From an uncultured virus (IMG/VR IMGVR_UViG_2687453182_000005) (Duplodnaviria; Heunggongvirae; Uroviricota; Caudoviricetes): DNA of 64,000 bases. This document shows positions 25,452 through 47,621 of this stretch, piece after piece. The notes under the pieces were generated by a model. That model had not been told where the DNA came from. It did no database searches and was given only the letters and a program-made list of their open reading frames with translations. Location of the stretch: the IMG/VR virus record IMGVR_UViG_2687453182_000005. One strand, given 5' to 3'. The translations under genes and the position numbers were made by a program. The stretch's first letter is position 1. Every line of letters begins with the position of its first letter.

Positions 25452-25504
25452 TTCAGCCCAGAGAAACTTACCGAAGGAATGGCTGACTTACTTCGATGGA
25501 GAAT
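25452..25504 (+). promoter_or_regulatory. Conserved structured leader, copy 1 (pseudoknot candidate)
   Basis: 35-nt core (25470-25504) matches 47587-47621 at 34/35; TCAGCC/GGCTGA and CGAAG/CTTCG stems; GGAG SD follows. Confidence 0.65.
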
Positions 25505-25509
25505 TGAAT

Positions 25510-25710
25510 ATGTTAGTTAGTGAAATGGCAAAAGACATAGAGGCCCTTCAAACACGTACTCTTGCTTTAGAGTATATAATTCAAGTAATGATTAGGAATA
25601 TGTCTGATATTGAAAAAGAAAAACTTATTAGTGAATTAAATAGAGTATCGCATGATAGTCCTGTAACTATCGAGGCGTTTGGTATCATTCAGTCACATTT
25701 ACATAATTAG
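25510..25710 (+). CDS. Small helical moron protein, IraP-like (66 aa)
   Basis: ALEYIIQVMIRNMSDIEKEKLISEL resembles recalled IraP [29 protein letters not shown] SD supports the 25510 start. Confidence 0.55.
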   Translation: MLVSEMAKDIEALQTRTLALEYIIQVMIRNMSDIEKEKLISELNRVSHDSPVTIEAFGIIQSHLHN

Positions 25711-25729
25711 TACCATATTATAAAGGCGG

Positions 25730-26020
25730 TTACTGTGCCGCCTTTATGCGATCTATCATGGTTCTTGCATATTTTTCCGCTCTCCCCATAAATGAAGCAA
25801 ATGTTTCATTTGGGTTATAATCCTCTGTGTACTTAAATTGTAACTTTGGTTCTTCATCTGGGGTATTATTTCCCACTATCTCCGTTACTGTAATTTCTGA
25901 CGTTAATATAGGTTTTTCACTTATTTTTATAGCCCCAATGCCATATCTTTTCACATCCCCTGTAATTTCCACTCCTGAAAATTTGTTTGATAACAATGGG
26001 AACTCTACTTTGATTTTCAT
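25730..26020 (-). CDS. Hypothetical protein
   Basis: GAGGT SD; C-terminus similar to the neighbouring gene. Confidence 0.6.
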   Translation of the reverse strand: MKIKVEFPLLSNKFSGVEITGDVKRYGIGAIKISEKPILTSEITVTEIVGNNTPDEEPKLQFKYTEDYNPNETFASFMGRAEKYARTMIDRIKAAQ

Positions 26021-26059
26021 AACTACCTCTCATTAAAAAGCCACAGAATTTGGTGGCTG

Positions 26060-26272
26060 TTATTGGTTTAATTCTTTAATTGTTTTTCTTGCATATTCTT
26101 CGGATTCTTTAAAATATTCCGAAAGAGGCTTATTAGCATCAAAGCTAGTTTGATAAACCAGATATGCTTTTGGTGGTTCAAAATCAGCTTCATTTCCCAT
26201 GTATACATCTACTGGAATGCTAATTTCTTTATCTTCTGGACGAATACAAATATTTCCTAATTTTAATTTCAT
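26060..26272 (-). CDS. Hypothetical protein (70 aa)
   Basis: GAGGT SD before MKLKLG. Confidence 0.6.
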   Translation of the reverse strand: MKLKLGNICIRPEDKEISIPVDVYMGNEADFEPPKAYLVYQTSFDANKPLSEYFKESEEYARKTIKELNQ

Positions 26273-26294
26273 AAATACCTCTCTTATTAAATGA

Positions 26295-29234
26295 TTATCT
26301 ATTTCCTGATACTGCTTTAATGATCTTGTACAAATCACCACCTTCTCGCCCTTCACTAATAAAAAGGCTTTTAACTTTATTCTTTAACGATTGCTCAGCA
26401 GCTCTCACATCTATATTTGGCATTGCACTTTGTTGCTGTTCGGTTTCAATCTTGACGCCGCTCATATCAATTGTCACATTCACCCCACCACCAGCAATTT
26501 GAGGATTGCGAGCGATAAATGCTGTTGGCTGTGTAACCGACATGGGCGCAGAACCACCGACATGACCACCTGAAGCATAACCTCTCTTTCCTGCATCCAT
26601 TAGTCGATAGAGATTATCTACACCTAATCGTTGCGTTGCTTCCTTGGTAAAGACGAACTCGCCTTTATGTACTACACCCGCTGGATCATGTTTTCCACCA
26701 TCGCCTGTATAACCACCACTTGCAAACCCAAAGAAATTACCTACCGCACTACCACCAAATGCCGCTTTCATAGCATTTAGCATAGCCATCTGCATTAACA
26801 TCTTGGTGGTCATTTCTAAGAATGAGCGAGTGAAGTCAGCAAAATTAGCTTTGCCCGTCAATACAAAATCAGAGAGACTGTTACTCATGCCTTGGAATGC
26901 TGATTGACTAATTTGAGCTACGTTACCGTAAACGTTTGTGGCCTGATCTTGGAATTCAGCAAAGCCTTTCTTAACGCCTAACTCCCAGTTAGCACGAATA
27001 GAGTCTTCCTTAGCATAATACTCCTCTAAAGCTTTTCTCTCGTCTGGTGATTTAGCTTTCTCTAGTGCGATGTCTCGTTGATACATGCGGCCAGACTTAC
27101 CAGCTCCCAACTCTAAGGCGCGACTTCTGGCATTAATTTCTTCAACACGTTTAAGTTGTTTATCTAACTCACGATTATGTAACTCCTGAAGCTTAACCTC
27201 ATCACCAGCTATGGCCAGTGCTTCTTGAGAAGCAAGAATGTAGTCCTTTTTAGCAAGCAACGCCTTTTCGTCCTTGGTTAACTGTCTTGTTTTCTGAGCC
27301 TCCTCAAGGATTGATATTTTCGCTTCCATATCCCAAAGTTTTTTACGCTCAGAGCTAATCACATCACTGACTGTTTTATGCTCTTTTAGCACCTTCAATT
27401 GTGCTTGCAGGGATAGTAGGGCTTGATTTGCTGATTCATCTACTCTAGTACCATAATCTGGTCGGTAGGTTGGGGTTTTACCTTTACCTTTGGCTTTTTC
27501 TTTCTCGTAACGCTCTTTCTCTCGGCGGATGGCTTCATCTTTTGCAGCTTGAGATGCATACGCGTTATTTTTTATCTCATTGAGTGTTCTCTGGTGCTTT
27601 TCCTCTGCGGTTTCGTATTGTCGCTTTAATTCTTGATCGGCTCTAAATTGCGCCTTTTTACGCTCTTCCTCATCTCTTGCGGCTTTTTCACTTGCATTTT
27701 TTATAGCGATTTGAGTCTGTTTTTCTTTTAATAGAGCGAGTTTACTTTTAACTTCATCTACGGTTAACCCTGTTTTGTATCGTAGTATATCTTTTCCAGC
27801 AGGTTTTATTTGAGCTTCAATTAAAGCTTCTTCATACTCTTGAATTTGCTGCTCAAGAGTCTTCTCCCTGCCGATATTTAACATTTTATCCCATGCTTTT
27901 TCAGCTTCATTGCCAACCCATTGCCAAGCTTTTTCAAGCGTACCTAGATTTTCCTTTATCTGTTTGGTTCGCTCATCCATAGCATTGGCATATGATTCCA
28001 TAGCCATTTTAGCCGCTTCTTGCTCTTTTCCTTGCGTCTGAAGTGTGGTTATTTGTTCTAATTGGGTAGCAGTTAAAAAATGTAATGATTTATCTAATTC
28101 AGTGACTGCTTTAACTGGATCTTCTTGCAATCTCTGAAATTGCTTTATTGTCTCATCAACCGATTGACCAACGGCTTTTTCCATAGCAGCAGCGGTTTTA
28201 GATACCATGTCAACATCTCGGCCCGAGAAAGCACCAGAGCCAACTACTTTTGAAATAGTATCAGCCATTCCATACTGAGTTATCCCATTCCCCGATAAGC
28301 TTCTAGCCAAAGCATCCAGCTGTGCAGCTGTTCTTCCTGCATAACCACCAGTAAGAATTAACTGCTTATTATACTCGCCAAATTCTTGCGACCCTTTATA
28401 CGCGGCTAACGCCACAGCTGCCGCAGCACCAGCAAAACCAAACATAGCAACTCTTGCAGGGGTAATAATTGATGCTAACGCTTTTAGTGAGTTACCGACA
28501 CCACCAAATGAGTCCTTTATTTGCCCCCCTTGTTGTATCATCACCATCCAAACAGGCATTCCTGATGCTAATGACGTAACAATATCTGTCATTTGGGCTG
28601 GTAGTTGTCGCATAGCGTTTCGATATTGACCAATAGTGATTGAGCCATTTAAGAATGCTTTTTCTTGCTCTTTTAGCTTGTTGATCATCGGCGCGGCTTG
28701 TTGCGACACGCCAAGTTGAGCCGCTTTTAGCTCTAAAATCTCTGTCCTCGTTTTGCCTATAATTTCAGTTTGATTTTTCAGTGAATTTAAAAAATCATCA
28801 GCAGCTTGCTTGGCTCTATTTGTTGCTGCCTCTTGAGCTAACAACGCCCGCCCTTCAGCAGTAAGGGACATATTAACTCGTGTTAATTTATCTCTAGTCT
28901 GTTCAAGTATGGCGTTATAGTCTGCAAACTGATCCTTTGGTAATATCCCTTTTTTATTTGCCTCTATTAATTTTTGAGTGGCTTTATCAAGCGCATCAAA
29001 TGCTTTATTGGTTGGATTTATTGAATTTAATAAGTCATCAAGTTCTTTCTTTTGCCTCTTTATCGCGTCGGCTGCTCTCTTTTGATGATCAACCCCTCTA
29101 TTAAACTGGTCATTTAAATTTCGCGAAGAACCGCTTACCTTCTCTGCTGTATCGCCGAACTCCTTTAACTTTTGTGTGCCACGCTCCAGATCTGACGTAT
29201 CAGCCTTTAATGATATTGTTGCTATATCTGCCAT
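26295..29234 (-). CDS. Tape measure protein, lambda H family
   Basis: QLPAQMTDIVTSLASG, QQGGQIKD and FASGGYTG..PAGVVHKGE motifs. Confidence 0.95.
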   Translation of the reverse strand: MADIATISLKADTSDLERGTQKLKEFGDTAEKVSGSSRNLNDQFNRGVDHQKRAADAIKRQKKELDDLLNSINPTNKAFDALDKATQKLIEANKKGILPKDQFADYNAILEQTRDKLTRVNMSLTAEGRALLAQEAATNRAKQAADDFLNSLKNQTEIIGKTRTEILELKAAQLGVSQQAAPMINKLKEQEKAFLNGSITIGQYRNAMRQLPAQMTDIVTSLASGMPVWMVMIQQGGQIKDSFGGVGNSLKALASIITPARVAMFGFAGAAAAVALAAYKGSQEFGEYNKQLILTGGYAGRTAAQLDALARSLSGNGITQYGMADTISKVVGSGAFSGRDVDMVSKTAAAMEKAVGQSVDETIKQFQRLQEDPVKAVTELDKSLHFLTATQLEQITTLQTQGKEQEAAKMAMESYANAMDERTKQIKENLGTLEKAWQWVGNEAEKAWDKMLNIGREKTLEQQIQEYEEALIEAQIKPAGKDILRYKTGLTVDEVKSKLALLKEKQTQIAIKNASEKAARDEEERKKAQFRADQELKRQYETAEEKHQRTLNEIKNNAYASQAAKDEAIRREKERYEKEKAKGKGKTPTYRPDYGTRVDESANQALLSLQAQLKVLKEHKTVSDVISSERKKLWDMEAKISILEEAQKTRQLTKDEKALLAKKDYILASQEALAIAGDEVKLQELHNRELDKQLKRVEEINARSRALELGAGKSGRMYQRDIALEKAKSPDERKALEEYYAKEDSIRANWELGVKKGFAEFQDQATNVYGNVAQISQSAFQGMSNSLSDFVLTGKANFADFTRSFLEMTTKMLMQMAMLNAMKAAFGGSAVGNFFGFASGGYTGDGGKHDPAGVVHKGEFVFTKEATQRLGVDNLYRLMDAGKRGYASGGHVGGSAPMSVTQPTAFIARNPQIAGGGVNVTIDMSGVKIETEQQQSAMPNIDVRAAEQSLKNKVKSLFISEGREGGDLYKIIKAVSGNR

Positions 29235-29293
29235 TTAATTTCCTCCAGATATAAAAAAACCACCCGAAGGTGGTTGTATTTTAGAATATGGTA

Positions 29294-29947
29294 TTATAGA
29301 GAGTTTGCCAAAGCGTCTGATTTTTCCTTAATCATTATTTCATTCTGTTTTTTTTCTTCTTGTTTTATTTTTTCAATAAATTCAGATTTGTAAAACAAAG
29401 ATATAATAACTGACCTATTATCGCCAGTGGCATTCAACATAATCATAACACTACTGGAGTCATTACCTTGAAACAAAGATACATATTTACCACAACCCTC
29501 ATTATTTAGGCATTCTGGTAGAGTAAGCATTCCTCTTGTTCTATTCTTCCATAAGTATTCTTCAGAATATTGTTCACTGTACTTTGAAGATAATGCTTGT
29601 TTTAATATGTTATATTTCTCAATAACTTTACTATCATCATCGTCATACACATAAATCAATGCATCTACATTAATTAATCCATACTTATCGTCAATACTTA
29701 CACTGTACATATCCAGACCATCAATTAATGAGGAATCATTTTTGATGAGATACTCTTTCACTCTATTTTTTTCATTACCAATTAACTTTATATTTCCAGT
29801 TTTGCTGAGCACATCACTGTATGTCATCCCCCATTTTAATCCAAATGGGGCTGATATTTTTTTCTCTACTGCTAACGTTGTTGTGCTAAAAAACAAGCAG
29901 CTAACCAGCAAAGCAATCACCCCACTAATATTCAATAACTTCTTCAT
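29294..29947 (-). CDS. Exported moron protein (superinfection-exclusion candidate)
   Basis: Signal peptide, PFGLKWGM motif, AT-rich, own terminator. Confidence 0.6.
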   Translation of the reverse strand: MKKLLNISGVIALLVSCLFFSTTTLAVEKKISAPFGLKWGMTYSDVLSKTGNIKLIGNEKNRVKEYLIKNDSSLIDGLDMYSVSIDDKYGLINVDALIYVYDDDDSKVIEKYNILKQALSSKYSEQYSEEYLWKNRTRGMLTLPECLNNEGCGKYVSLFQGNDSSSVMIMLNATGDNRSVIISLFYKSEFIEKIKQEEKKQNEIMIKEKSDALANSL

Positions 29948-30017
29948 CCCGTCCTCTCAGTTCTTTATTTAGTTTTCTTAATGGTAGCCGAGTGTAGTCG
30001 CAAATGGGAGCAAATTG

Positions 30018-30326
30018 TTATAACCAACCAAATCCTTTAGCCATTAATCCAGCCAAACCTAATGCAACAGCGATGATCGCACCAAATAACATACGGAAAT
30101 CGGATTTAGCATCCTTTTTAATATCTTTTATATCGTCTTTAATTTCGCTGATGTCGCGCTTAATGTATTCAACATCAGACTCTAATTTAGCTACTCGTAA
30201 TTCCATATCTCCACCTCCACCATCGCCACCATAGGTAGTAGTATAAAAATCCTCAGCCCTTTCATTAGGCTTTACTATTCTTAATCTATTTCTACTTAAT
30301 TTAGAGTCAATGGCTTGATTATTCAT
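30018..30326 (-). CDS. Coiled-coil protein with C-terminal TM helix
   Basis: RVAKLESDVEYIKRDISEIK heptads followed by a hydrophobic tail. Confidence 0.6.
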   Translation of the reverse strand: MNNQAIDSKLSRNRLRIVKPNERAEDFYTTTYGGDGGGGDMELRVAKLESDVEYIKRDISEIKDDIKDIKKDAKSDFRMLFGAIIAVALGLAGLMAKGFGWL

Positions 30327-30720
30327 TTATTTTACTCACTTTGAAATAAGCTCTATTGCTGTTTATCATCTCTGCATTTTTTATAAATGATGACTCAATA
30401 AAGTAGGTTCCTTCTTCTATAAATTTACATTTTTCAAAGGTGAGTTTTATGGATGCCATTACTTCATTAGGCTTCCCTTGTGTATCCTTTACCTTAATTA
30501 ATATCGATTTCGGATCACAAATTGGAGTTATTTTTTCACCATCAATCCTAAACAACCTATTTTGAAGAGATATTGGCTCATCATCCTTAAGGTCTAACAT
30601 GAACACCTTGAAATGGAAATCAAGCACAACAGGTATTTCGTCACAATCAAAAGACAGTAACGGAGACTCATCATCACTAGGATTATATGGGTGTAAAAAA
30701 GCTATTCTTTCTGTATTCAT
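30319..30720 (-). CDS. Hypothetical beta-rich protein
   Basis: Overlaps the downstream gene by 8 bp. Confidence 0.55.
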   Translation of the reverse strand: MNTERIAFLHPYNPSDDESPLLSFDCDEIPVVLDFHFKVFMLDLKDDEPISLQNRLFRIDGEKITPICDPKSILIKVKDTQGKPNEVMASIKLTFEKCKFIEEGTYFIESSFIKNAEMINSNRAYFKVSKINE

Positions 30721-30872
30721 GAGCAACACTTATTAGTAAAATGTGAATACATTTAACCATTTGTTTTAAGCAAGGTGTTACTGATCTTATTTACAGCAAA
30801 GATGGAAATTTCCACTATCTTTTTTATTACCCACTAAACCACCCTATTGTTTTAATTTATCAAGAATGTTCG

Positions 30873-31262
30873 TTATTTAGGGCCTGTTATCCCATACACT
30901 AGAAGCCACTTCAAATAATCTTCTAATGATATTCCTCTGATTTCTGCCGATTTTTTAGCAATCTCTAGGGTCTCATTATCCAGTTCAAGTGATATTGTTG
31001 CAGTATTGTCTTTATTCATGGACATTTGCGTTAAAAGATTCTCACCATCCATAGAAAATCCGTTCTCTAGAAATGAATACTGAACACCAAGAGCTTTCGC
31101 TAATTTGGCAATAATGTGGGCTCTTGGCACATTAATACCTGATTCATATCTAGATATTTGAGCCGGTGCCACACCTGACAATTCGGCAAGCTCACTTTGT
31201 GACAAGCCTTTTTGCGCCCTTAGTTCAGTTAGTCTTTTTGCAATAGAGTTATTTTTAATCAT
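30873..31262 (-). CDS. XRE-family HTH regulator, possible C-terminal RHH
   Basis: LSQSELAELSGV..AQISRYESG; divergent from the antirepressor. Confidence 0.85.
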   Translation of the reverse strand: MIKNNSIAKRLTELRAQKGLSQSELAELSGVAPAQISRYESGINVPRAHIIAKLAKALGVQYSFLENGFSMDGENLLTQMSMNKDNTATISLELDNETLEIAKKSAEIRGISLEDYLKWLLVYGITGPK

Positions 31263-31426
31263 AATTAGTCATCAATAGTATTGACAAGTGTTGTTTTGAG
31301 TATAAGATATATTTTACATGATTAATGATGACTGTCTATGACTTTTAAGCATGTAAAATAGCGAAGCCCTAACTACTTGCAATAGTCAGGGCTTCTAGTT
31401 TGATTCGAAAAATTAGGAAACGAACC

Positions 31427-32263
31427 ATGAATACTATATCAACTATCAATGTACCTTTCCACGGTAACAATTTATATGTTGTGAATTATAAAGGTCAGCC
31501 ATATGTACCGATGAAACCTATCGTCGAAGGTATGGGATTAACTTGGCAATCTCAATTTGAGAAGATAAAACAACGATTTAAATCAACCATCACGGAAATC
31601 GTGATAGTTGCCGCAGACGGCAAGGAGCGCAATATGATTTGCCTAGCTCTCCGTAAACTTGCAGGCTGGCTTCACACTATCAGCCCTAACAAGGTAAAAC
31701 CAGAGATCCGCGATAAAGTAATCAAGTATCAAGAAGAGTGTGACGATGTACTTTACGAATATTGGACTACTGGTGAGGTTAAGAAAAAACACAAATCAAC
31801 TGTTCAGGAACGCAACCCATTAAAGAATGCTGTTAATCTACTGGTTAGCAAGAAAGGCATCATGTACCCAGAAGCCTATTCTCTTGTTCACCAGAAATTC
31901 AATGTTAGTAGCATTGAAGAATTAACAGTAGATCAGATACCAGATGCGGTTGAGTATATTCACAAGTTTGTACTTGAAGGTGAATACATTCCTAAACAGG
32001 AAGAAAATATACTTTTTGAACCAAATCAAAACTCAATCACCGTAACCATACCAAAAGAAGGAAGATGGTTAGTTTCTTATAAAAATGGAAAGCAACAAGT
32101 AGTTAGCGTTGATGGTCATAACGTTGTCAGTGTTGAATACATTCAAAAATTACAACGTGACTCTAATGCGCTTATTGAGTTACTGCAAAACTTCCGTCTA
32201 CGCACCCAAGTTATGCAAGGTGAGAAAAGCGGAGATATTTTAAACACTCCGTTAATTGCATAA
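31427..32263 (+). CDS. Antirepressor (P22 Ant N-terminal domain)
   Basis: VPFHG, PYVPMKPIVEGMGL.W..Q and YQEECDDVLY.YW motifs. Confidence 0.85.
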   Translation: MNTISTINVPFHGNNLYVVNYKGQPYVPMKPIVEGMGLTWQSQFEKIKQRFKSTITEIVIVAADGKERNMICLALRKLAGWLHTISPNKVKPEIRDKVIKYQEECDDVLYEYWTTGEVKKKHKSTVQERNPLKNAVNLLVSKKGIMYPEAYSLVHQKFNVSSIEELTVDQIPDAVEYIHKFVLEGEYIPKQEENILFEPNQNSITVTIPKEGRWLVSYKNGKQQVVSVDGHNVVSVEYIQKLQRDSNALIELLQNFRLRTQVMQGEKSGDILNTPLIA

Positions 32264-32346
32264 CAATAGTAGTAACGCCCAAGGATGGGCTATCAATTCT
32301 CGCGATTCGCTATAATCAAACTATATCAATAAATTACACAAGATAA

Positions 32347-32435
32347 GTTTTACAACTTTTTTGTAAAACCCTTTAGGAGTCGCTCAATATTTGAACTACA
32401 AAACTTTTGTAGTTACCTACAATTATTTTGTAGGT
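32347..32435. repeat. Three palindromes with consensus TACAA-N5-TTGTA
   Basis: 32347-32369, 32394-32414 and 32415-32435, perfect 8-10 bp arms. Confidence 0.8.
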
Positions 32436-32522
32436 CGGTCATTTCAATTTAGAACAATCAAACAATATCAATAATTTGAGATATTCAGGCAACAAAAAAC
32501 CCACCGGAGTGGGTTGGTTTGG

Positions 32523-33029
32523 TTATTCATCATCAGGGGTGGGTTGTTTTGCTTTTCTTCCAAAAACAAAAACGCCAGCAAGTCCAATAACATTCATAGT
32601 TATTAGCCCCGCACCTGCACCATACTCACCTTTCCACATAAGGTACCCACCAAGCAAAAAAATAAGCAATGACAAGGAGTAAGCCATCCATTGCCCCCTT
32701 TTGTCTTTTTTGATAGCGCCATTCAGTGCAGTTTTTTGTGTTTCATGCCTGAAGCGTTGCTCAGCCTCTGTGAAAGAAAGTATTCTCTCAGCCATGCCAG
32801 GAACAATTTCTTCGTATTGCCTAAGGTGATCTGGGTGTGGGAGAGGTCCGTGGAATATTTCACGTTTTTGGATAACTGACATTATTTTAGGGCGGTCCAA
32901 CAGTCTCTCGAGAACAGCTGGATTCTCTTCAACTGCGCTTTCTATTTTAGCGACCGCCCCTGTTAATTCCTCTTCCGACATTATCGTGTGATGCTTATCT
33001 TGTTCTTGCTCTGAACTCATCACTTTCAC
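32523..33029 (-). CDS. DUF2335-like membrane protein
   Basis: FHGPLPHP..L..YE.I.PG.AERI...E.EQ..RH motif and two TM segments. Confidence 0.8.
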   Translation of the reverse strand: MKVMSSEQEQDKHHTIMSEEELTGAVAKIESAVEENPAVLERLLDRPKIMSVIQKREIFHGPLPHPDHLRQYEEIVPGMAERILSFTEAEQRFRHETQKTALNGAIKKDKRGQWMAYSLSLLIFLLGGYLMWKGEYGAGAGLITMNVIGLAGVFVFGRKAKQPTPDDE

Positions 33030-33198
33030 TCACAAGTTGAGAAATAGCCTTGCTCATATCTTTCCCTACGGCTTCGATATCTTTTTTTAGGCGGTCTTGG
33101 TCTCGCCCTTGAGCTGCCATTCTTCTGTAATTTGTAGCAGGAGCTAAGTCCATTACGCTACCCATAGCTATGAGATATCTGCGCATTGTTGCTGTCAT
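32995..33198 (-). CDS. Small partner of the DUF2335 gene
   Basis: GGAGGT SD; GSV.DL.P and D..AVG.DM motifs. Confidence 0.65.
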   Translation of the reverse strand: MTATMRRYLIAMGSVMDLAPATNYRRMAAQGRDQDRLKKDIEAVGKDMSKAISQLVSESDEFRARTR

Positions 33199-33369
33199 AT
33201 GACACCTCCGCTTAGTTGAAGACTATAGTTCATGGTTACATCAAATTGCTAAATATAACTGGAGCTATCGTAAAACAACATTTAGTTAACTTCAATAAAA
33301 GTTTGTGCCTCCGAGAGGAGTATCACTATCTATCACAAGAGATAAATCTCTATTTAGAGGAAATTTAAA

Positions 33370-33410
33370 CTGTATCTAAACACAGTACCACTACCTACAA
33401 AACGGCTCAA
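33370..33410 (-). promoter_or_regulatory. LexA box overlapping a sigma70 promoter
   Basis: CTGTATCTAAACACAG (33370-33385); minus-strand TTGAGC-17-TACTGT. Confidence 0.75.
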
Positions 33411-33588
33411 ATCCACCGTTCGGCTATCTTCGGACAAGGCTGGGATTAGCACTTTCAAAAAACAATAAAGGACCAAACGTCATCAGGTTAGTAGCAGCCC
33501 CATTTACTTTGTACGGATATTTGACTTAATTAAATTCACGTCTAATATTTGTTCTGCTCAATAACGAGCATTACAAGGAGTTTTTATT

Positions 33589-33771
33589 ATGGGTAAAAAA
33601 CCCGGTGAAAACACAGGTAAAGATGGCGGTATCTATCGAGAAGTTGGACCTCGTGGCGGTTTAAAAAACAATTATGCCACAGTGAGAGACAACGAAAAGC
33701 TACCACCAACAACGCAATCAGGCAACACATGGGTTCTTGAAAAAAGAACACCAAACAGTAAGCGTCCTTAA
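33589..33771 (+). CDS. YjzC-like small protein
   Basis: KPGE....G.Y.EVGPRGG...LPPT..G..W motif; AAGGAG SD. Confidence 0.75.
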   Translation: MGKKPGENTGKDGGIYREVGPRGGLKNNYATVRDNEKLPPTTQSGNTWVLEKRTPNSKRP

Positions 33772-33784
33772 CCTGTTGTAATAA

Positions 33785-34156
33785 TTAAAGCCGGCCTACG
33801 TCGGCTTTTTTGGGTTTAACACAGAAATCCACCATCCTACTAATAAGATGGCAAAATGTTTCATTCGCGGCTCCTGTTTCAACGCTCACACCGACGCGGT
33901 GACAAATGTCGAACGCTATATGTGCGCATTCGTGAACTAGAGTAGATAATTTACCGTTAAACACACCAATAATATGGAGTACACACTGAGTGTTAGTAAC
34001 TGTATGACTTGCACCGTTAACAAAACTATCCCCACCATCAATGCCTAGTTTTTCATGTAGAGATCGCCAATCATCCCAAGAGCCACAATAGATAATATAT
34101 CCAGATTCAAATAAAGGCACCTTCATATGTCGATACTGCTTTAGGATTTTGTTCAT
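33785..34156 (-). CDS. Hypothetical protein with HExxH motif
   Basis: LVHECAH; convergent with yjzC-like. Confidence 0.6.
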   Translation of the reverse strand: MNKILKQYRHMKVPLFESGYIIYCGSWDDWRSLHEKLGIDGGDSFVNGASHTVTNTQCVLHIIGVFNGKLSTLVHECAHIAFDICHRVGVSVETGAANETFCHLISRMVDFCVKPKKADVGRL

Positions 34157-34538: not shown

Positions 34539-34552
34539 CGCCTCGGCGACCG

Positions 34553-38685: not shown

Positions 38686-38699
38686 TGCTTATATTTCCT

Positions 38700-39456: not shown

Positions 39457-39552
39457 GTTATTCCCCTTGGGATTGAATGCGCCTAGCGCGTTGAATTAAC
39501 TCAGCCCTAAGCTGAATTTAGGTAATAAAAAAGGCCGCATAAGCGACCAGTG

Positions 39553-39798
39553 TTAGTTTGATTTTAATCCGCGACTGATAACCCGAACCGTGTCACCGAC
39601 TATCGTTGTAATGTAAGCATGATCTGTTCGTTTAATATCAAATAATGGGATGGCGTCTTTCTTTGTGTGTTCAACCCGCGCCACGATATCTTTATTTTCT
39701 GATTCAGGATAAAACTCTAAGCGGTACATATCTCCTAAGCAGTGGACTTCTTCCACTTTACGTCCTTCACGTTCAGTAATTAATTTAAGTGCGTACAT
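39553..39798 (-). CDS. Hypothetical moron protein
   Basis: Flanked by terminators; AAGGA SD. Confidence 0.55.
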   Translation of the reverse strand: MYALKLITEREGRKVEEVHCLGDMYRLEFYPESENKDIVARVEHTKKDAIPLFDIKRTDHAYITTIVGDTVRVISRGLKSN

Positions 39799-39867
39799 AG
39801 TTATATTCCTTAGTTTTTTAAGCAACAAAAAAGGCCACCGAGGTGACCTTGTTAAATGGTTTATTGA

Positions 39868-40989
39868 TTAGCTATATCCAGCCTCTCTAAATGCTTGCTT
39901 GTCTATCTCCCTGAGCTGTTCGAGAGAAATAAACTCACCTTTGTCCGTGTAAAATTCGGATGGATGCATACCGCCCTCTTTCATCAACCTGAACCTTGTC
40001 TCTCCAAATACCTGTCGCTGTCGCCACTCAGGTTGTCGCTGTATCCAATCAAGAAAATTAGTATCCGCTGGCACTTGCCCGTCCATTGATGCTCTCGTTC
40101 CTGCATCCATCTCGTCTAAATCAATGCCTAATTCACGCCATGATTTGGTAACCAATGTTTCTGTTGAACGGCAATTGAAGTGGATTTTTCCTGGGCCTTG
40201 TAGGTAAGGAACTTTATGACCAATAGGCTTACCTTCCAGCGTGTATTTCAGTCTGTCACGAATAATACAATCGTGAGATGTTTTATTATCGAGGGTAGAT
40301 AACCACTGTTTACAATCAAGAATGTCTTTATTGGCACCAGCAAACTGATCTCGCGCTGTTGCTTGTAAATGGCTAATGGCAGTTTTAGCTATTGTCGTCG
40401 CATTAGCTCGGCTTAGTTGCAATATGCCATCTTTATAACCTTGGTTTGCATGTCCTCTGATTTTACGTCCGATTTCTACCGCGCTATCACCATTTAAATA
40501 ACCATTACGAACAGCGTTATTTATGCGTGTCATGCGATCTGACTCTAACCCATCAGCCCATTCAGAAAGTAATTTCCCTTGAAATGGGCGAGACATGACT
40601 GAGGAAAATAGCATTTCCTCTGTAATGCTCATTAGTGGATATTTGCGTAGAACAACATCAGGTAGTAGAGAATCAAAAAGGGATGGGTAATAACCAGCCT
40701 CATATAATGCATGCGCTCTCATTTCTTCCGTTAGTAGCGAAAAAGCGCTATCAACAGCTCGCTTATTAATACTTCTAACGCTGGACAGCAACGACTCCAA
40801 TCGCCTTGCAGTGAAACTATTAACATCGATGGAGGTATCATCTAAAGACACTATAAGTGAAGCAGTTAATTCAGCATCAAACTCATTAAGTGCCTTTATC
40901 ATGCGTCTAGCCACCCCTGTAGAATAGCGACCAGAAAACAGGGAGTGAGCAATCAATTCATCCATTAACCGCTCATTCACTGATCTCAT
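39868..40989 (-). CDS. Minor head protein (SPP1 gp7 / Mu F-like)
   Basis: W.STLD..TS..C and HFNCRS motifs. Confidence 0.85.
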   Translation of the reverse strand: MRSVNERLMDELIAHSLFSGRYSTGVARRMIKALNEFDAELTASLIVSLDDTSIDVNSFTARRLESLLSSVRSINKRAVDSAFSLLTEEMRAHALYEAGYYPSLFDSLLPDVVLRKYPLMSITEEMLFSSVMSRPFQGKLLSEWADGLESDRMTRINNAVRNGYLNGDSAVEIGRKIRGHANQGYKDGILQLSRANATTIAKTAISHLQATARDQFAGANKDILDCKQWLSTLDNKTSHDCIIRDRLKYTLEGKPIGHKVPYLQGPGKIHFNCRSTETLVTKSWRELGIDLDEMDAGTRASMDGQVPADTNFLDWIQRQPEWRQRQVFGETRFRLMKEGGMHPSEFYTDKGEFISLEQLREIDKQAFREAGYS

Positions 40990-42356
40990 GTCTCACCTAC
41001 CATTGTCGGCTCTTGATTATTAAGCTCATCCACCACCACATCAACATCATCAGCGGGGTCGATAACATCATATTTCTGCAAACTTCTCACTAAGTCAGAT
41101 TTACGCGTTGCGCCAGATTGCCATGCTGCGACGATTTCACGGATCATCGAACTATCGGCAATGTGATTAACGAGGTCTTTGTTAATCTCAAACGAAATGC
41201 CTGCAGTATCTAAACCTAAGTATTCAGCACACCATATTAGCGATTTACTGCATGCATCGGAAACATTAGAGCAACAGATGCTCAGGATAGAGGTTTGTGC
41301 GTTCTGTTCACCGACAGACTGAATAACCGTTTTAACTTTGCTATCAGCAGAAACCAATTGAGCACCGAGCGCAACCATATAATCGCGTTTACTGTCCATT
41401 GCTTCTTTTGCCAGCATGTTAGGTTGAGCCTGAGCGTAACCAAAGAAACCTTCTTTTGGCAACATAATTGGCGAGCGAGAACCAACCATAACGCCTTTCT
41501 TTTCTAGATAGTCACGCCATTCTGTTCCTAGCCCACCTAGATAAGGTTGTATTTGCCCACAGAAGAAAACAGAATCTTCATAATCAGCAGAGTTTCGATA
41601 ATGCCCTAGGTTGATTTTTGCCAATCCTAGAAGTGGGGCTTCATCAATAGTGTGATCATTATTCTGTGCACCAATAAATGTAAATGGAATTTCATTCCAC
41701 ACACCGTTACCAGCACGCGCAGGTATATACTCAGAAGAAATTTCAAAAACGCTACTTCCACTGGGCTTGCGATACACGCGGCAGATAAACTTACCTTCTT
41801 CTATCGCTAATACTCGGTATTGAATTGCATCTTTAAATCCAAATCCGTCCTCTTCTTCAATTGTCTCTCGCAATACCACCAGCGTTAACATCGTGCGCCC
41901 ATTAATCCGCGCTGTACGCCAATTAATGATATCTTCAGCTCGATATTGAAATATGTACGGAAGTTTAGAATCACTATTGTAATCAACATATAGCCCGTGT
42001 CGCCCTACCTCTAATACCGACTCAAGCGAGGACTGAGCGAGTTGATAAATACTTGAGCCCGCACCATCAGCATCATCTTTTAAACACGAAAGCTTTTCGA
42101 CAACAGCAACTAAGGGATCTTTTTTAAATGCCATGCCTATCATACCGTTACGGGTGTTACCTGTTATTGGGTAAAACACAGCACGGTCCTGATAGTCTTT
42201 ATTGCGTTTCCTTTTGCGTTTGCCATCTTGTTCTTCAAGCTCAGGAAGATAGCTTTTTATGTCCTCACCACCTCGACAAACAGAGCGCACTAACTCCCAC
42301 TGAGGAGCAGCCGTTTTATACTCCGGTCGAGTGAAATCTACATTTGTTGTACTCAT
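40986..42356 (-). CDS. Portal protein (DUF4055-like)
   Basis: Follows terL; IINW, IPF.FIG and NLGHY..SAD motifs. Confidence 0.85.
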   Translation of the reverse strand: MSTTNVDFTRPEYKTAAPQWELVRSVCRGGEDIKSYLPELEEQDGKRKRKRNKDYQDRAVFYPITGNTRNGMIGMAFKKDPLVAVVEKLSCLKDDADGAGSSIYQLAQSSLESVLEVGRHGLYVDYNSDSKLPYIFQYRAEDIINWRTARINGRTMLTLVVLRETIEEEDGFGFKDAIQYRVLAIEEGKFICRVYRKPSGSSVFEISSEYIPARAGNGVWNEIPFTFIGAQNNDHTIDEAPLLGLAKINLGHYRNSADYEDSVFFCGQIQPYLGGLGTEWRDYLEKKGVMVGSRSPIMLPKEGFFGYAQAQPNMLAKEAMDSKRDYMVALGAQLVSADSKVKTVIQSVGEQNAQTSILSICCSNVSDACSKSLIWCAEYLGLDTAGISFEINKDLVNHIADSSMIREIVAAWQSGATRKSDLVRSLQKYDVIDPADDVDVVVDELNNQEPTMVGET

Positions 42357-43843
42357 CAGAAGGTTGTTCCTAGGTTAATTTCGAATGCTGGACGCTTGGT
42401 ATTTCTGCGACTCACCGCAAAATACCTAAATCCGTCAGCATCATGCGACGTGTAATCGTGAAGCGGTTTATCTTTCCAACAGCCTCGCTTGTCATCCCAC
42501 TCTTTACGATAAGCTTCTAGATGAGCAATGCCTTCACTACATTTATGCTCATCAAACACGCAAAGTGGCAGAATTTCACGTACTGCCTCGATACCTTCAT
42601 CAACTGAAAGCTTCGGCACTACTTCAAATCGGATTGAGTAAATTTGTCCGTCGATTTCGTACCCCTCACGCGCTAATTCACGCCGAGATTTCGCATCCGA
42701 GCCAAACTCACGGTTATCGATATCATGAGGGCCATTGTGACTTGCATATGTGTAGCCTTTGTCTTTCAGTACTTTCATGTAGTGCCGTAGACCTTCACCA
42801 CTGTTTGAGTAGTGGTCTATAATGTGGAACTCCTCGCCCACTTCACGAATAAACCAAATTGACGTTGAGTCACCCACACCAATATCCCAGTACGTGTGAA
42901 CCGGTAAGTGCGAGTTATCAGGAAGTGTGCCAATGCGTTTATTTTCGTACAGGAAGCGGAACTGCTTGGCGTAGTAAGCGCCTTCAACCGATTGTTGGAA
43001 TGCCTCAGACGGTATTGACGGATATTCCCGTTTCATATCGTCGCCAAGCGTTTTCTCTTTGGCGTAATACCATGCTTTCTGGCGCTCATTTAATTGAACA
43101 CCATGTTTGCTGGCTATCTCATCAAAGTAATCAACTAACCGCTGGGGTAATGGCTCAACAGGATTAATGGCATACTCTGGATTCTTCCACCATGAGAAGA
43201 AAAAGAACTTCCAGTCTAGGTTAGAGAGAGTCTTATTCTGAATTTGCGCTTTCTCAGCAGACTGGCAATAATCGAAGAAATAACCTGCTCGACCCTCCGC
43301 TGTGCTTTCAATCGTCGTAAAACAATCGCTTGATACCGCCTCAAATGCGCCAGTGACAATCTCACGGGCTTTCTCTGGATACTTAGCACATATCTTACCG
43401 AACTCAGAAACGTGCAAATAACGGAGCGTACCGCCACGAAATGACGTGCTGATATAGAGCGAGCCGCCTTTGCTAAACACCAACTCACCAGCCGCATCAT
43501 TACTCGCTGGGTTAGCCGCTTTGATTTCATCAGGTAGCTTGTCATAGGCATACTTTATCTTTTCCCTGAATAGTCGCTTAGCATCGTTAAGTGTGTGGGC
43601 TATCAATGCACATTTAGCCGCCTCAAATAACGCTGCGTCCAATTGGATAATGCAGACCTCAGTAGTGAAGCCAAGCTGACGGGCTTTAAGGATAATGTTT
43701 CGCGTGTGCATCCCTTCAAAATATTCGAGTTGCTCAGGCGTCATTTTAAATCGAACTGGCTTACCTTCTTTATTGGTTATCCAGTAGAGGTGATTTAATC
43801 GCCAGAGCTTATCTCTTAATAATGCAAGATGTTCTGGCTTCAT
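42356..43843 (-). CDS. Terminase large subunit
   Basis: LKARQLGFTT Walker A, LHVSE, ESTAEG and HDADGFRY motifs. Confidence 0.92.
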   Translation of the reverse strand: MKPEHLALLRDKLWRLNHLYWITNKEGKPVRFKMTPEQLEYFEGMHTRNIILKARQLGFTTEVCIIQLDAALFEAAKCALIAHTLNDAKRLFREKIKYAYDKLPDEIKAANPASNDAAGELVFSKGGSLYISTSFRGGTLRYLHVSEFGKICAKYPEKAREIVTGAFEAVSSDCFTTIESTAEGRAGYFFDYCQSAEKAQIQNKTLSNLDWKFFFFSWWKNPEYAINPVEPLPQRLVDYFDEIASKHGVQLNERQKAWYYAKEKTLGDDMKREYPSIPSEAFQQSVEGAYYAKQFRFLYENKRIGTLPDNSHLPVHTYWDIGVGDSTSIWFIREVGEEFHIIDHYSNSGEGLRHYMKVLKDKGYTYASHNGPHDIDNREFGSDAKSRRELAREGYEIDGQIYSIRFEVVPKLSVDEGIEAVREILPLCVFDEHKCSEGIAHLEAYRKEWDDKRGCWKDKPLHDYTSHDADGFRYFAVSRRNTKRPAFEINLGTTF

Positions 43844-43845
43844 GA

Positions 43846-44447
43846 TTATTCCTTAGATAAGTCGTCCATTAGTTCTGATAGCTGACTAGCTGTCTTATTC
43901 GGCTGAGCATCATCAAGGCCGTATGCTTGACGCTCAAGTCCAACTAAATTTTTAAGTGTTTCGCTTAATGCCTTGGCTGACTTAACGCGCTCAGGCAGGG
44001 AGATGATTGAGTGATAAATTTCATTGAGTTTGTCGCGTCCGTTATCATCAGGACTAAACATTAACTCGCCAAGTTTTCTTAAGGCTGGCACATCAGCACA
44101 TTCAGCAGATAGTTCATCAAATAAGTTATTGTTAACTCTCTAGCCCTTCGAATATCGCCTCTATGCTCCATGCGGACATTAGCAATAACCTCGGCATTAG
44201 CCTCAATAAGTTGCCGTTCTGAAATAGCCTTTTCGGTGGCAACCAGACTGGCAACCTCCCTTTTGGCAACCAAGTTTTCAGCCCTAGCTTTAACCTTCGC
44301 CTTTAGATCTCGCTCCCACCCTTCTTTCTTGGCGCGCTTACTTATCGCCTGATGGGTTATCTCGTATTGAGAGGCTATTTCCCTTATGGACATCACGCCA
44401 GCTCGGTAAGCCGACTCGATGGCCTCCCAATCTGGTCTTTTAGCCAT
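43846..44447 (-). CDS. Terminase small subunit, split by one frameshift
   Basis: PDWEAIESAYRAG HTH part plus LERQAYGL C-terminal part; three GGTTGCCA repeats (44237-44271) may be the pac site. Confidence 0.8.
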
Positions 44448-44625
44448 ATCCATTCCTTTAAATTTCTTTAAACACAATTTCTTTCTTAAAACAGAGCTTC
44501 ATTAACCAAGTGCTGTTAATTAAAGCTCCGATAATAAACAATGGATACATGTAACGGCGCAGTGTCATTTTGTAATGCAGTGTTCCTGTTTTCATATTCC
44601 ACCCAATAAAAAAGGCCACTAGGGC

Positions 44626-44784
44626 CTATTTGGTTTTCTGTTTGTTGACTAATTTGCCTAACTCGCGCTCGACGATTTCAGCAACTATCCGCCCCTCATC
44701 AACTCTGCCACAGTGTAAGCATTCAAGTGATTGCTGTAATTGACGATGGAGAGTATCTAGCCAGTCTTTTTCTTGTTTGGTCAC
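44626..44784 (-). CDS. Hypothetical protein (52 aa)
   Basis: GTG start overlapping the upstream stop; MTKQEKDWLDTLHRQL... Confidence 0.5.
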   Translation of the reverse strand: MTKQEKDWLDTLHRQLQQSLECLHCGRVDEGRIVAEIVERELGKLVNKQKTK

Positions 44785-44987
44785 GCCTTCTCCTTAGCGA
44801 ACTTACTCGCCCACACTTTGGCAATATGTAAGCAGTCGTCAAACATTCGCCCTTTTCTACTTGCTTGAGAGCTTCGGCGATAATGATCTACCGCCATGTA
44901 ACTTGCTCTACGACAAACAGGCAAAGAAAAGCCGAGCTTTTTTAACTCGGCTAGTACGTTCTGCTCTATGAATTGTTCGTGGTTCAT
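44781..44987 (-). CDS. Hypothetical phage protein
   Basis: ATGA coupling to the upstream gene. Confidence 0.6.
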   Translation of the reverse strand: MNHEQFIEQNVLAELKKLGFSLPVCRRASYMAVDHYRRSSQASRKGRMFDDCLHIAKVWASKFAKEKA

Positions 44988-45568
44988 GCCGGCTCTTCTC
45001 CATCTGGAAATTCGCCCATATCAGGTAAGGTTAATTGTGATAGTTCTTTAATTGCCTTCTTCGCTTTGCGTATTTTCTTTAAGTGACGCTTGCGTAAATT
45101 CATTAAGTCACTACCTTTCCTGCCAAAGTTCTCGAACGACCAGTTATCGGCTGCTACTAATCTATTTTGCATCTCATTGATAGTCAGGGTTTTAAGCTCA
45201 TTCATGTCAAGGTTTGCTAACCCCGTTTGTGGTTTTGACTCTTTTTCAGCTAGATCAAGCAACCATCGACGCAAGGCTTTCGCTACATCTGTATTAGCTA
45301 ACATTCCGATTAGATGCGCACCTCTAACAGAGAAGATCCTGACCTTTTTCTTACGTAAGTTGTTGTTTATTCCATTGGTCATTGTTTCAGTGACCATTGT
45401 CATATCATCAGAAAACTCATCTTTATTGGCGTTATATAGATTGGTTACTGACTTCTCATTTTTGTATTCGAGAAGCTTAGCCATCTAAGAGCTGGTAAAC
45501 CAAATCTTATTATCACCATTATCAAATGGAGTAATTTCATTACCTTTGAAAACTAATGATTTGCTCAT
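44984..45568 (-). pseudogene. Bro-N-like DNA-binding protein with in-frame TAG at 45485-45487
   Basis: MSKSLVFKG..IWFTSS*MAKLL.Y..LY..N.DEF..RIFS.RGAHLI.M.A.T..AK..R.W.LD. Confidence 0.75.
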
Positions 45569-45852
45569 GGTGTAAATCCTTATAGAAAAGCGAACCTGTT
45601 CACCAGAAATAACCGCCCCACAGAAAACACCATTAACGGTTTTTCTCAGGTTCGACTTTCTGTAAGGTTCTGTGAGTGTTTTTAATTGCGCGGTGAATGC
45701 GCCGATGAAATGTGTAGAGTTCGCGTTCCTAGCAGTCAAGATATGATCACTCTCCTTAATGGATAAACGACTTATCTAATTGCTGATATATATATTTACT
45801 TAAGCTATACTAAGTAGCTATCGCTACACTTTGATTGATATCTTGTTAGTTT

Positions 45853-45879
45853 GCCCAGCCCCCATGCTGGGCTTTTTTT
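45853..45879 (+). terminator. Plus-strand intrinsic terminator inside the late region
   Basis: GCCCAGC-CCCCAT-GCTGGGC-TTTTTTT. Confidence 0.8.
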
Positions 45880-45949
45880 ATTCTTTTGGAATGCTTTTAT
45901 CCAATTCTTCACGGAATTGAGTTGGGTTATCGAAACCTTGTGCTGCCAT
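45878..45949 (-). CDS. 23-aa peptide MAAQGFDNPTQFREELDKSIPKE
   Basis: GGAG SD; lies after the spanins. Confidence 0.5.
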   Translation of the reverse strand: MAAQGFDNPTQFREELDKSIPKE

Positions 45950-45976
45950 GATATTTCTCCATTAAAAAGCCCCTAA

Positions 45977-46231
45977 TTACTTAGAGGCTCGTTGTTGTTC
46001 AATTTCCCGTATTGCTTTCTTGTCTGAATTACATTGCTCAATAACCGATAACAGGGAGATGTTTAACATTAACGATTCTCCCCATGTCATTTGTTCGGGT
46101 ATATAGGGCAATAGACAATCAGCGGTTAGGTGTGCCGGTATCGCTATGTGTTCCACTGGCACGTATTCTTTCTGAATAGTCGTGCATCCTGATAAGAGCG
46201 TCACTAGGAATAGTAGTATTGGCGCAATCAT
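45977..46231 (-). CDS. o-spanin lipoprotein
   Basis: Lipobox LSGC; IEQCNSDKKAIR. Confidence 0.8.
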   Translation of the reverse strand: MIAPILLFLVTLLSGCTTIQKEYVPVEHIAIPAHLTADCLLPYIPEQMTWGESLMLNISLLSVIEQCNSDKKAIREIEQQRASK

Positions 46232-46496
46232 TATTGACAAGAACAGTTTTGATAACCGTTTTAACTTTTTCAGAATCCACGGCTGACCTATTCCGCTCTT
46301 CGCTATTAAGTGATGAGACATTATTGATAATCCTGAATGTGCGGTTGGCGTTTTCTGTAATGGATTGCTGGCGAGATAGCTGATTGGTTGCTGTGTTGTA
46401 ATCTTTGCTCAGCTTGTCGTAGTCATCTATTACCCACCATAGCCAGAATGCAGATATTGCCAGTAGTCCAGCTAATACCTTAGTTAGCGTGTTCAT
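46119..46496 (-). CDS. i-spanin
   Basis: N-terminal TM and coiled coil; overlaps the o-spanin. Confidence 0.8.
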   Translation of the reverse strand: MNTLTKVLAGLLAISAFWLWWVIDDYDKLSKDYNTATNQLSRQQSITENANRTFRIINNVSSLNSEERNRSAVDSEKVKTVIKTVLVNNDCANTTIPSDALIRMHDYSERIRASGTHSDTGTPNR

Positions 46497-46497
46497 A

Positions 46498-46830
46498 TCA
46501 CTTAACGCCATTGTGCTCTAACGAGTAGTGATTACCGTCATTGAAACGACCGCCCCATGTACCGCCGATAGATTCCCAATATTCACCAAGCAATTTATGG
46601 TCACTTGATGCTGTTAGATATTTACCGTCTTTAAATAGGTTGAAATCCACAGCTAGCCGCTGGGTATGCAAGCTATTTTTAATACCAGCACCTGATTTAG
46701 CATTTAATTGTGCTTGCTCAGGCGTTCTGTATGCTTCTGAAAACGTCAGCTCATAGCCGTTGTCATAAGCAAAGATAATTAAGTCCGCAATCATGCGAGT
46801 GAATTTTCGTTGTTTCTCACCGAGTGTCAT
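46498..46830 (-). CDS. Endolysin, M15 peptidase
   Basis: SLH..RLAVD and WGGRF.D.NH motifs. Confidence 0.9.
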   Translation of the reverse strand: MTLGEKQRKFTRMIADLIIFAYDNGYELTFSEAYRTPEQAQLNAKSGAGIKNSLHTQRLAVDFNLFKDGKYLTASSDHKLLGEYWESIGGTWGGRFNDGNHYSLEHNGVK

Positions 46831-47110
46831 TTTTACTAACCCCTCTAAATATTTGCATTACATTCCCACGGCTAAGAATTATTAGTGCGCATAGCGTGAT
46901 ATTGATTCCGACTTCAAATGGATCTGCATGGGCGTAGTCATTCGTTAATATGCGTAGTGGGATAGAACCCAGCATAACAATGAGAACCCATGCTATAAGT
47001 GACGGAAAGAATTTGTATTTAGCGCCGTTACGCTCATAGTTAACAAGACGAATAACAGCGAATAAGCATGAGAAAAAATTGACGTAAATCCAAAACATTG
47101 AGATGGTCAT
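46817..47110 (-). CDS. Holin-like membrane protein
   Basis: Three TM segments; RGNV motif. Confidence 0.7.
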   Translation of the reverse strand: MTISMFWIYVNFFSCLFAVIRLVNYERNGAKYKFFPSLIAWVLIVMLGSIPLRILTNDYAHADPFEVGINITLCALIILSRGNVMQIFRGVSKNDTR

Positions 47111-47496
47111 CTTCCACCTCCTCTGAATTTATCTATCAGGTTGTTAATAACGTTGTTGATACTGTCTGTGAGCGCACCGGGTTTAGATATTGTTACCAGT
47201 ACACCAACTAAACCAGCCGATGAGAACATAGCACCAACAGAGCGATCAACCTCTCTATCTCCGACAATACCACTCAGTAGTGACGACATGAAATCAGCGC
47301 CTAATATCCCAATCGCAAATGCAACCGTGAAATACGCCCATCGTTTTAATAGCCGGATATCATGAGCAGACAATACAAATATCACCGCCCCTGCGAACGC
47401 ACCAATAACAACGCCTGCGTCCATACCTGAATAGAGACCTACAATAGAGACACCCGCTAACGAGGCGGTTGCTGTGCCTGTTAACGGCTCTTGCAT
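47107..47496 (-). CDS. Putative holin
   Basis: EPLT and GAFAGAV.FV motifs; multiple TM segments. Confidence 0.75.
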   Translation of the reverse strand: MQEPLTGTATASLAGVSIVGLYSGMDAGVVIGAFAGAVIFVLSAHDIRLLKRWAYFTVAFAIGILGADFMSSLLSGIVGDREVDRSVGAMFSSAGLVGVLVTISKPGALTDSINNVINNLIDKFRGGGR

Positions 47497-47568
47497 ATAT
47501 GTAGTCCTGAGTTTTATTAATGTGAGTAAGTTAAACGTGCGAATATTAGACTTAAGATAAACTAATGG

Positions 47569-47621
47569 GTCAGCCCAGTGTAATTGACCGAAGGAATGGC
47601 TGACTTACTTCGGTGGAGAAT
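47569..47621 (+). promoter_or_regulatory. Conserved structured leader, copy 2 (pseudoknot candidate)
   Basis: GTCAGCC/GGCTGAC and ACCGAAG/CTTCGGT 7-bp stems; GGAG SD follows. Confidence 0.65.

Follow-up and report, generated by a model that had tools for sequence, protein, structure and literature searches.

Why does one and the same leader sequence precede two different small genes that lie 22 kb apart in a single prophage and run against its late transcript? The question is raised by a 64,000-nt stretch of DNA from an uncultured virus of the Caudoviricetes (IMG/VR record IMGVR_UViG_2687453182_000005), the whole of which is called the window here. The window holds a lambdoid prophage with its late operon (Q, holins, terminase, tape measure, minor tail, J) on the minus strand, and near-identical DNA is present in Proteus mirabilis records. 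Judged by sequence comparison, the repeat is the short, Morganellaceae form of the lambdoid 'reverse moron' promoter-plus-leader module; its structured leader is real and apparently undescribed, while the kind of cassette that it heads is itself known. The window contributes the minimal form of this leader, two copies in one prophage, a mapped 5' end and the borders of exchange.

The preliminary description of the locus, made from the letters alone, had reported a 35-mer present twice with 34 of 35 positions identical, and this was reproduced: the copies lie at 25470-25504 and 47587-47621, with A25496/G47613 as the lone difference. A window search allowing up to 3 mismatches found the 35-mer at those two places only and gave a match in none of 100 shuffles, and a repeat finder extended the repeat to 52 nt at 90% identity from 25453 and 47570, the copies being 22,117 nt apart. 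The complementary segments were found as described (TCAGCC with GGCTGA, CCGAAG with CTTCG(G/A), in interleaved order), as was the location of both cargo open reading frames (ORFs) on the plus strand, opposing the late operon. An H-type pseudoknot touching the GGAG Shine-Dalgarno sequence (SD) had also been proposed, of which the interleaved complementarity stands but the contact does not, for the knot ends 1-2 nt before GGAG and leaves the SD unpaired. Each cargo gene indeed faces small convergent minus-strand ORFs, whose stops are 19 nt (site 1) and 3 nt (site 2) away, but site 1 has two of them, weak paralogues, instead of the single gene claimed. The downstream coding sequences do differ, in that the two cargo proteins gave no BLASTP alignment with each other, but both are helical with IraP/DUF2594-like leads.

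Morons were defined in HK97 and HK022 and are recognised by insertion between otherwise conserved late genes, by a G+C content lower than that of the flanks, by expression from the repressed prophage and by an independent transcript with its own promoter and terminator. Both cassettes are inserted between otherwise conserved late genes, at site 1 between the tape measure and minor tail genes and at site 2 between Q and the holins, in slots whose content varies among relatives, and their G+C contents are 0.33 and 0.39 against 0.42-0.43 in the flanks. The independent transcript was found at site 1; at site 2 the -10 hexamer is predicted and no plus-strand terminator was found.

In total, 129 distinct leader copies were collected, including 3 chance entries that remain in all counts out of 129. 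At 61 viral loci the exact 25-nt core was present; each has a promoter of either of two types, and the ORFs downstream are of many kinds. Among GTDB genomes, a pattern fixing the stems matched 20 times. Proteus, Providencia, Xenorhabdus, Morganella and Moellerella account for 15 of these matches; 5 more (Streptomyces and others) lie inside long reading frames and were discarded as chance, and the matches of a looser pattern scan were mostly chance as well. A sequence-only model gave strong matches in 4 of 151 genomes (14 at E<=0.05), among which one carried a longer leader and one, of another genus, carried two copies as in the window, 21 kb apart (G075:C26:105574 and 126757).

The cargo protein of the locus with the longer leader led to srb of HK022, and the DNA upstream of srb proved to be a long form of the leader with an extra hairpin, P1a. 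This long form occurs in 27 of 50,697 phage records, including ES18 gp25, mEp043 and Evi, and also precedes HK97 gp23. It matches 221 of 5,426 Escherichia coli genomes, mostly partially; the absence of any short-form BLASTN match in those genomes is therefore a limit of sensitivity. A covariance model of 50 long forms matched 9 of the 151 family genomes (7 strongly, 1 a short form, 1 by chance) and none of 143 genomes from other families of the order. Built without any window sequence, this model placed its two best window matches on the two leader copies (E 2e-4 and 5e-4). The short form corresponds to the long one without P1a; its unpaired linker has a similar length, 13 nt in most copies, compared with 9-11 nt in the majority of long forms. 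Scans of the window and 17 loci against Rfam 15 left the leader unmatched, no family reaching its gathering score over it (the best nearby sub-threshold match was isrK, 22 of 50 bits), so that the element's reported status as unrecognised was upheld. Literature searches, which covered texts without supplements, found no paper on the RNA element or its motif strings and no occurrence of the term 'reverse moron', although bulk catalogues of predicted RNA motifs could contain the element. The homologue collection supports the earlier proposal of a mobile cis element in the 5' untranslated region (UTR), heading a family of counter-oriented cassettes.

How far the leader is structured was judged from these alignments. 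A three-helix model of the 50 long forms, with the hexamer pairing P1 (TCAGCC with GGCTGA), the hairpin P2 and P1a, was 94% paired as against 25-48% when slid, and both-side changes were found in 6 of 7 pairs of P1a and 2 of 6 of P2. Over short and long forms, the P2 arms have been fully exchanged yet remain paired (CCGAAG/CTTCGG, GCAGAG/CTCTGC, TCTAAG/CTTAGA, CCGGAG/CTCCGG, TCAGAG/CTCTGA), and the G-U cells favour the plus strand, 68 against 13 A-C cells, the cells not being independent. P1 is 96-100% paired per position. Its sequence and that of the loops RAT and TTA hardly change between Proteus and the E. coli phages, in contrast to the drifting P1a and P2, and its arms stand 28 to 50 nt apart. 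On account of the both-side changes, the arm swaps and the strand bias, the pairing of P2 and P1a on the plus strand is supported by covariation, and P1 is conserved complementarity without statistical covariation. An H-type pseudoknot, with the 5' hexamer pairing into the P2 loop, is likely, and the relation of the short to the long form with its similar linker length is a fit to the knot and not a proof of it. By nested folding alone, copy 1 did not stand out (z -0.6) and copy 2 did so modestly (z -2.7).

The leader is also fixed in position between a promoter and a ribosome-binding site (RBS). In 126 of the 129 copies the leader is preceded, at a distance of 5-8 nt, by the end of a TAnnnT hexamer, compared with 10 of 129 at control offsets; the 3 copies without it are the chance entries, of which two fall within tail genes. 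In 124 of 129 the start codon follows the P1 3' arm by 25-32 nt, and the SD starts 2-4 nt past the P2 3' arm in 94 of 129. An inverted repeat of the CAGG...CCTG type, which could be an operator or a late-strand hairpin, was noted over the -35 region and spacer in the window (25410-25440) and in many but not all long-form promoters (for instance L366:2365-2395).

From 24 listed RNA-seq runs, 4 were mapped on 24300-27300 (site 1), among them two raw stranded runs, X23 and X24. Plus-strand depth in these two was 0-0.1 just upstream, 21-65 over 25411-25713 and 6-12 beyond, while 21 (X23) and 29 (X24) reads stop with untemplated G-rich letters at 25451-25453 and the RNA 3' ends pile up at 25718-25719, ahead of a hairpin (Table 1). 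A monocistronic plus-strand RNA thus begins at the first bases of the leader, at the element and not downstream of it, a position whose -10 spacing suggests a primary start. Minus-strand late RNA was also present in both stranded runs, covering the leader at depth 4-80; no discrete antisense small RNA (sRNA) peak was seen. With late RNA in the same samples, the lysogen-specific expression put forward in the preliminary description is no more than a possibility. A 114-aa version of the site 1 cargo gene A1 starting at 25366 (25366-25710; P0001 in protein collections) was rejected, as the RNA starts inside the extension, and is probably a mis-called start. An N-terminal extension from an ATG inside the leader was likewise rejected, the frame to the cargo being 43/44/28. 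In nested minimum-free-energy folds of both window mRNAs, leader bases pair with the ribosome site, in competing folds that are specific to each cargo; no conserved anti-SD shared among leaders was found, and the SD is not sequestered in a conserved stem.

On the other side of the cargo lies the convergent late-strand gene, here called B. An automatic search, in which some hits are spurious and for which there is no chance control, found a convergent ORF within -130 to +110 nt in 82 of 97 distinct cargo contexts, leaving 15 without B. B1 of site 1 is a homologue of HK97 Gp22 (29% identity, E 3e-9; Foldseek E 5.8e-6), another fold search being uninformative (best Z 5.7). A1 and B1 have stayed paired from Proteus to Xenorhabdus; Gp22-like B genes nevertheless face 7 cargo clusters, and one linked B cluster faces 14. 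A conserved hairpin with a T run, which could terminate the cargo mRNA, was observed inside the N-terminal coiled-coil part of many B genes (L001, L002, L004, L006, L013, L048, L052, L055), whose C-terminus is variable and often overlaps the cargo. Pairs of loci reveal the limits of the cassette: L033 and L059 are 91% identical over 701 nt from the leader core onward, and L027 and L054, the latter interrupted by an assembly gap, share 95-98% identity between the leader and the start of B, outside of which their promoters and flanks are unrelated. A right-hand block at the B start has 3 matches in the window, a number reached in none of 100 shuffles. By these comparisons, the same cassette bodies occur at both prophage sites, and their edges fall at the leader and at the start of the B gene.

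Taking these results together, we consider it probable, if not strongly so, that the repeat forms the conserved front end of a portable 'reverse moron' expression cassette in which the knot aids expression constitutively. The site 1 data show that a plus-strand mRNA of its own sets out behind a -10 hexamer from the leader's opening base, carries one small cargo gene and ends at a hairpin in or beside the convergent late-strand gene. The 5' hexamer would pair into the P2 loop, so that the RNA would begin in a pseudoknot, with the start codon 25-32 nt further on. Such a knot could stop upstream sequence from pairing with the ribosome site of any cargo, provide a loading site for S1/30S, as those of tisB and timP do, and protect the RNA 5' end from decay; we infer these roles of RBS insulation, ribosome loading and 5'-end guarding by analogy with the pseudoknots of tisB and timP. 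The leader sequence may serve as the left and the B start as the right homology block for exchange of cargo among phages and sites, and after induction the late transcript would run antisense through the cargo and could damp it. The constitutive module is favoured because the SD lies outside the knot and because, without the knot, leader bases fold onto the ribosome site.

A number of observations weigh against this reading. Covariation in both stems, proposed in the preliminary description as a test of the knot, was obtained for P2 but not for P1, in which both-side change was found in 0 of 6 pairs among the 50 long forms, and in the 32 short forms alone covariation was not above that of shuffles. 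Most search patterns fixed the P1 3' arm; one further scan that left it free gave 122 matches, consisting of 93 GGCTGA, 11 family variants and 18 unrelated sequences. Only 2 of the 11 variants are compensatory, in near-identical loci that hold the single both-side P1 change, and the other 9 break one pair: 5 of 7 AGCTGA variants leave a C-A mismatch, and 2 GGCTGT and 2 GACTGA variants also break a pair. Since P1 variants break pairs and both-side change is absent from the long forms, simultaneous formation of P1 and P2 is unproven. P2 has only 4-5 pairs in most long forms, and 38 of the 68 G-U cells trace to one inherited position. The stranded runs are two samples of one study on a related but different strain, covering site 1 without a primary-5'-end test. 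Finally, that P1 and the loops beside it hardly vary points to a partner that recognises their sequence, and a merely passive structure could do without one. It is because of this conservation that the main rival is a regulated switch, in which a host or phage protein, an sRNA, the antisense late transcript or a ligand would bind the invariant P1 and loops and shift the leader between the knot and an RBS-hiding fold, every cargo gene thereby answering to a single signal. The drift of P1a and P2 beside the constant P1, the competing RBS-hiding folds of both window mRNAs, the minus-strand RNA over the leader and the example of timP, which works in this manner (PMC11228461), all agree with a switch. 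We still hold it to be on balance unlikely, given that the SD lies outside the knot, that the competing folds are cargo-specific with no conserved anti-SD found and that no separate antisense sRNA peak was seen at site 1. For a riboswitch, the unrelated cargo offers no hint of the ligand. A CsrA site at the GGA of loop 2 was tried as a candidate and rejected, being lost in the Xenorhabdus, Morganella, Moellerella and HK97 copies.

Other explanations concern the cassette as a whole or its DNA. That A is an anti-phage effector of the lysogen and B its late-operon antidote, as in the Tab/anti-Tab or phi80 Tai/Ati type, is compatible with a portable expression cassette and is possible by this analogy, though doubtful. 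The layout matches those systems as presented in PMC10884400 and PMC11364771, and both the frequency of convergent ORFs and the retention of A1/B1 agree with it. However, PADLOC 2.0 (of 2023, predating both papers) gave no match for 12 of 13 proteins and a weak partial one for the 13th (E 0.004), the facing A and B families do not pair one to one, and phi80 tai itself has no leader; allele-level pairing of A and B through variable C-termini is possible. The shared sequence might instead be mainly a recombination boundary with promoter-proximal DNA, its pairing being incidental, as the mapping of cargo exchange to the leader, the second shared block at the B start without obvious structure and the scant covariation of P1 would allow. 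This appears very unlikely to us: a block kept for DNA homology would not be expected to show two-sided changes in P1a and P2 or a bias of G-U pairs to one strand, transcription takes in the element from its first base, and the spacing of the P1 arms, which ranges between 28 and 50 nt, does not resemble that of an operator. That the structure works on the late transcript of the minus strand, perhaps in antitermination or processing, is scarcely credible and was rejected on the G-U bias and the RNA-seq 5' end. The reverse complement can form a mirror knot with classical loop lengths, and the A/G difference between the window copies gives a G-U pair on the minus strand only, but G-U pairs favour the plus strand by 68 to 13, and the element is fixed to a plus-strand promoter, SD and start codon, with plus-strand RNA beginning there. 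The most far-reaching proposal is an undescribed regulatory RNA family, in which a swappable library of at least 32 protein clusters would stand under one common post-transcriptional signal read through the invariant knot, with an integrase-free, integron-like recombination handle and with many cargo genes serving anti-phage or host-control functions that are silenced on induction; as a whole it is decidedly unlikely.

The 132 distinct cargo proteins of at least 50 aa form 32 BLASTP clusters, with a median length of 78 aa. Of 27 scanned, none was above a Pfam cut-off and many match PHROGs of unknown function, and the ECs1072 family was matched by 1 of 14 proteins scanned. The two window proteins look soluble and helical, A1 having three helices. 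A1 is weakly IraP-like by sequence: PF10796 was matched at E 0.011 by A1 and E 0.00019 by its Xenorhabdus homologue, and an NCBIfam model at E 0.00033, all below curated cut-offs (22.5 against 23.2 bits, 21 against 78 bits) and over the N-terminal half only, A1 being shorter than IraP. The comparison of A1 with IraP in the PDB (8gkv) gave E 0.0026, and a structure search in BFVD gave nothing at E<=0.001. A2, the cargo of site 2, gave only leads under 0.9 and is also found in Providencia phage PSTCR7lys. Srb of HK022 resembles one cargo family; its loss-of-function mutations reportedly suppress a host mutation that weakens Q antitermination (Atkinson and Gottesman, 1992), which would fit the reading of effector and antidote. 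In 9 of the 61 exact-core loci (L011, L015 and kin), a poly-A run ~36 codons into A1 carries a frameshift, and breaks were also noted in other cargo genes (L007, L059, L316, L334). In Proteus genomes (L363, L365), a pair of neighbouring genes from the same helical cargo family (weak phrog_6806 hits) lacks the leader and seems to lie outside any phage late operon.

Table 1. Features of the two cassettes in the window
Feature	Position	Strand	Basis or remark
Terminator-like intrinsic hairpin closing the cassette towards the minor tail gene	25385..25403	-	sequence
Site 1 promoter: ATATCAGG..TT upstream block common to the long-form module; -10 hexamer TATTTT at 25441-25446	25410..25446	+	
5' end of plus-strand RNA, probable transcription start	25451..25453	+	RNA-seq
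Leader copy 1	25453..25496	+	P1 5' arm 25453-25458, P1 3' arm 25481-25486
Leader copy 1, P2 arms	25471-25476 (5') and 25491-25496 (3')	+	outer pair C-A
SD of A1 (25498-25501) and cargo gene A1 (25510-25710, 66 aa)	25498..25710	+	expressed in RNA-seq
Hairpin ending the A1 transcript, overlapping the B1 stop	25722..25745	+	sequence; RNA 3' pile-up, depth fall
Convergent late-strand gene B1, 96 aa, HK97 Gp22 homologue	25730..26020	-	
Right-hand homology block, B-gene translation start	26017..26030	+	repeated at 26269-26282 and 48084-48097
Second convergent gene B2, 70 aa from ATG with RBS, weak B1 paralogue	26060..26272	-	
Site 2 predicted -10 hexamer TAAACT, other promoter type	47558..47563	+	inferred from sequence
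Leader copy 2	47570..47613	+	P1 47570-47575 with 47598-47603; P2 47588-47593 with 47608-47613
SD of A2 (47615-47618) and cargo gene A2 (47626-47868, 80 aa)	47615..47868	+	
Convergent late-strand gene B at site 2, 71 aa, between Q and holins	47872..48087	-	

Elsewhere in the window, a counter-oriented anti-repressor (Ant) gene lies on the plus strand within the tail region (31400-32263). A 92-nt repeat at 96% identity (16101-16192 and 16520-16611) overlaps a tRNA gene and is a probable attachment-site duplication at the prophage end. A second phage-like region (284-14712) contains tail-fibre repeats, a tape-measure-like gene, a Q-like gene and a CI-like repressor, and short direct repeats at 54722-54808, in the gene upstream of a DnaB-like helicase, are probably replication-origin iterons.

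The reverse morons of HK97 and HK022 carry no assigned function in their records, and a searchable leader unites scattered hypothetical genes into one set that could be screened for anti-phage or host-modulating activity. It also suggests how unrelated small genes come to be expressed and exchanged in fixed prophage slots. As a compact, probably knotted natural 5' terminus of 45 nt, the leader is a test object for S1 loading and 5'-end protection, for which the short Proteus form, being the minimal version, is the best construct for structure work.

Among known systems, the tisB and timP mRNAs of type I toxin-antitoxin pairs have 5' UTR pseudoknots (PMC7708055, PMC11228461). The proposed window knot differs in its distance of 25-32 nt from the start codon and in an SD that no conserved stem away from the knot holds; an antitoxin sRNA was not observed here, the two window cargo proteins look soluble and helical, and the Rfam scans gave no link. 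Tab/anti-Tab of JBD26 and TaiEcA/AtiEcA of phi80 likewise place a gene that runs against the late operon, under a promoter of its own, within that operon and beside a late-strand gene (PMC10884400, PMC11364771), and Q lowers TaiEcA in phi80 (PMC11364771). The phi80 tai gene differs in its divergent partner as well as in lacking the leader, and no protein homology of Tab and Tai to the leader cassettes was found with PADLOC 2.0, which is older than both papers. The IraP anti-adaptor (PF10796) and DUF2594 (PF10769) resemble A1 and its Xenorhabdus homologue weakly, below cut-off. The prophage anti-sRNAs AsxR and AgvB at the pR' moron site (PMC4104026) occupy the same slot as site 2 and are likewise modular, with conserved and variable parts, but they are stand-alone sRNAs of 51-60 nt, whereas the window element is the leader of a protein-coding mRNA of ~270-300 nt. 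The moron cassette as such is known (PMC3594210). The closest relatives are gp22/gp23 of HK97 (annotated 'reverse moron product'), gp22/srb of HK022 and gp24/gp25 of ES18 in GenBank, all three with the same layout and the long-form leader under annotations that name no RNA element or function, from which the window form is set apart by its lack of hairpin P1a, a longer P2 and the presence of two copies in one prophage.

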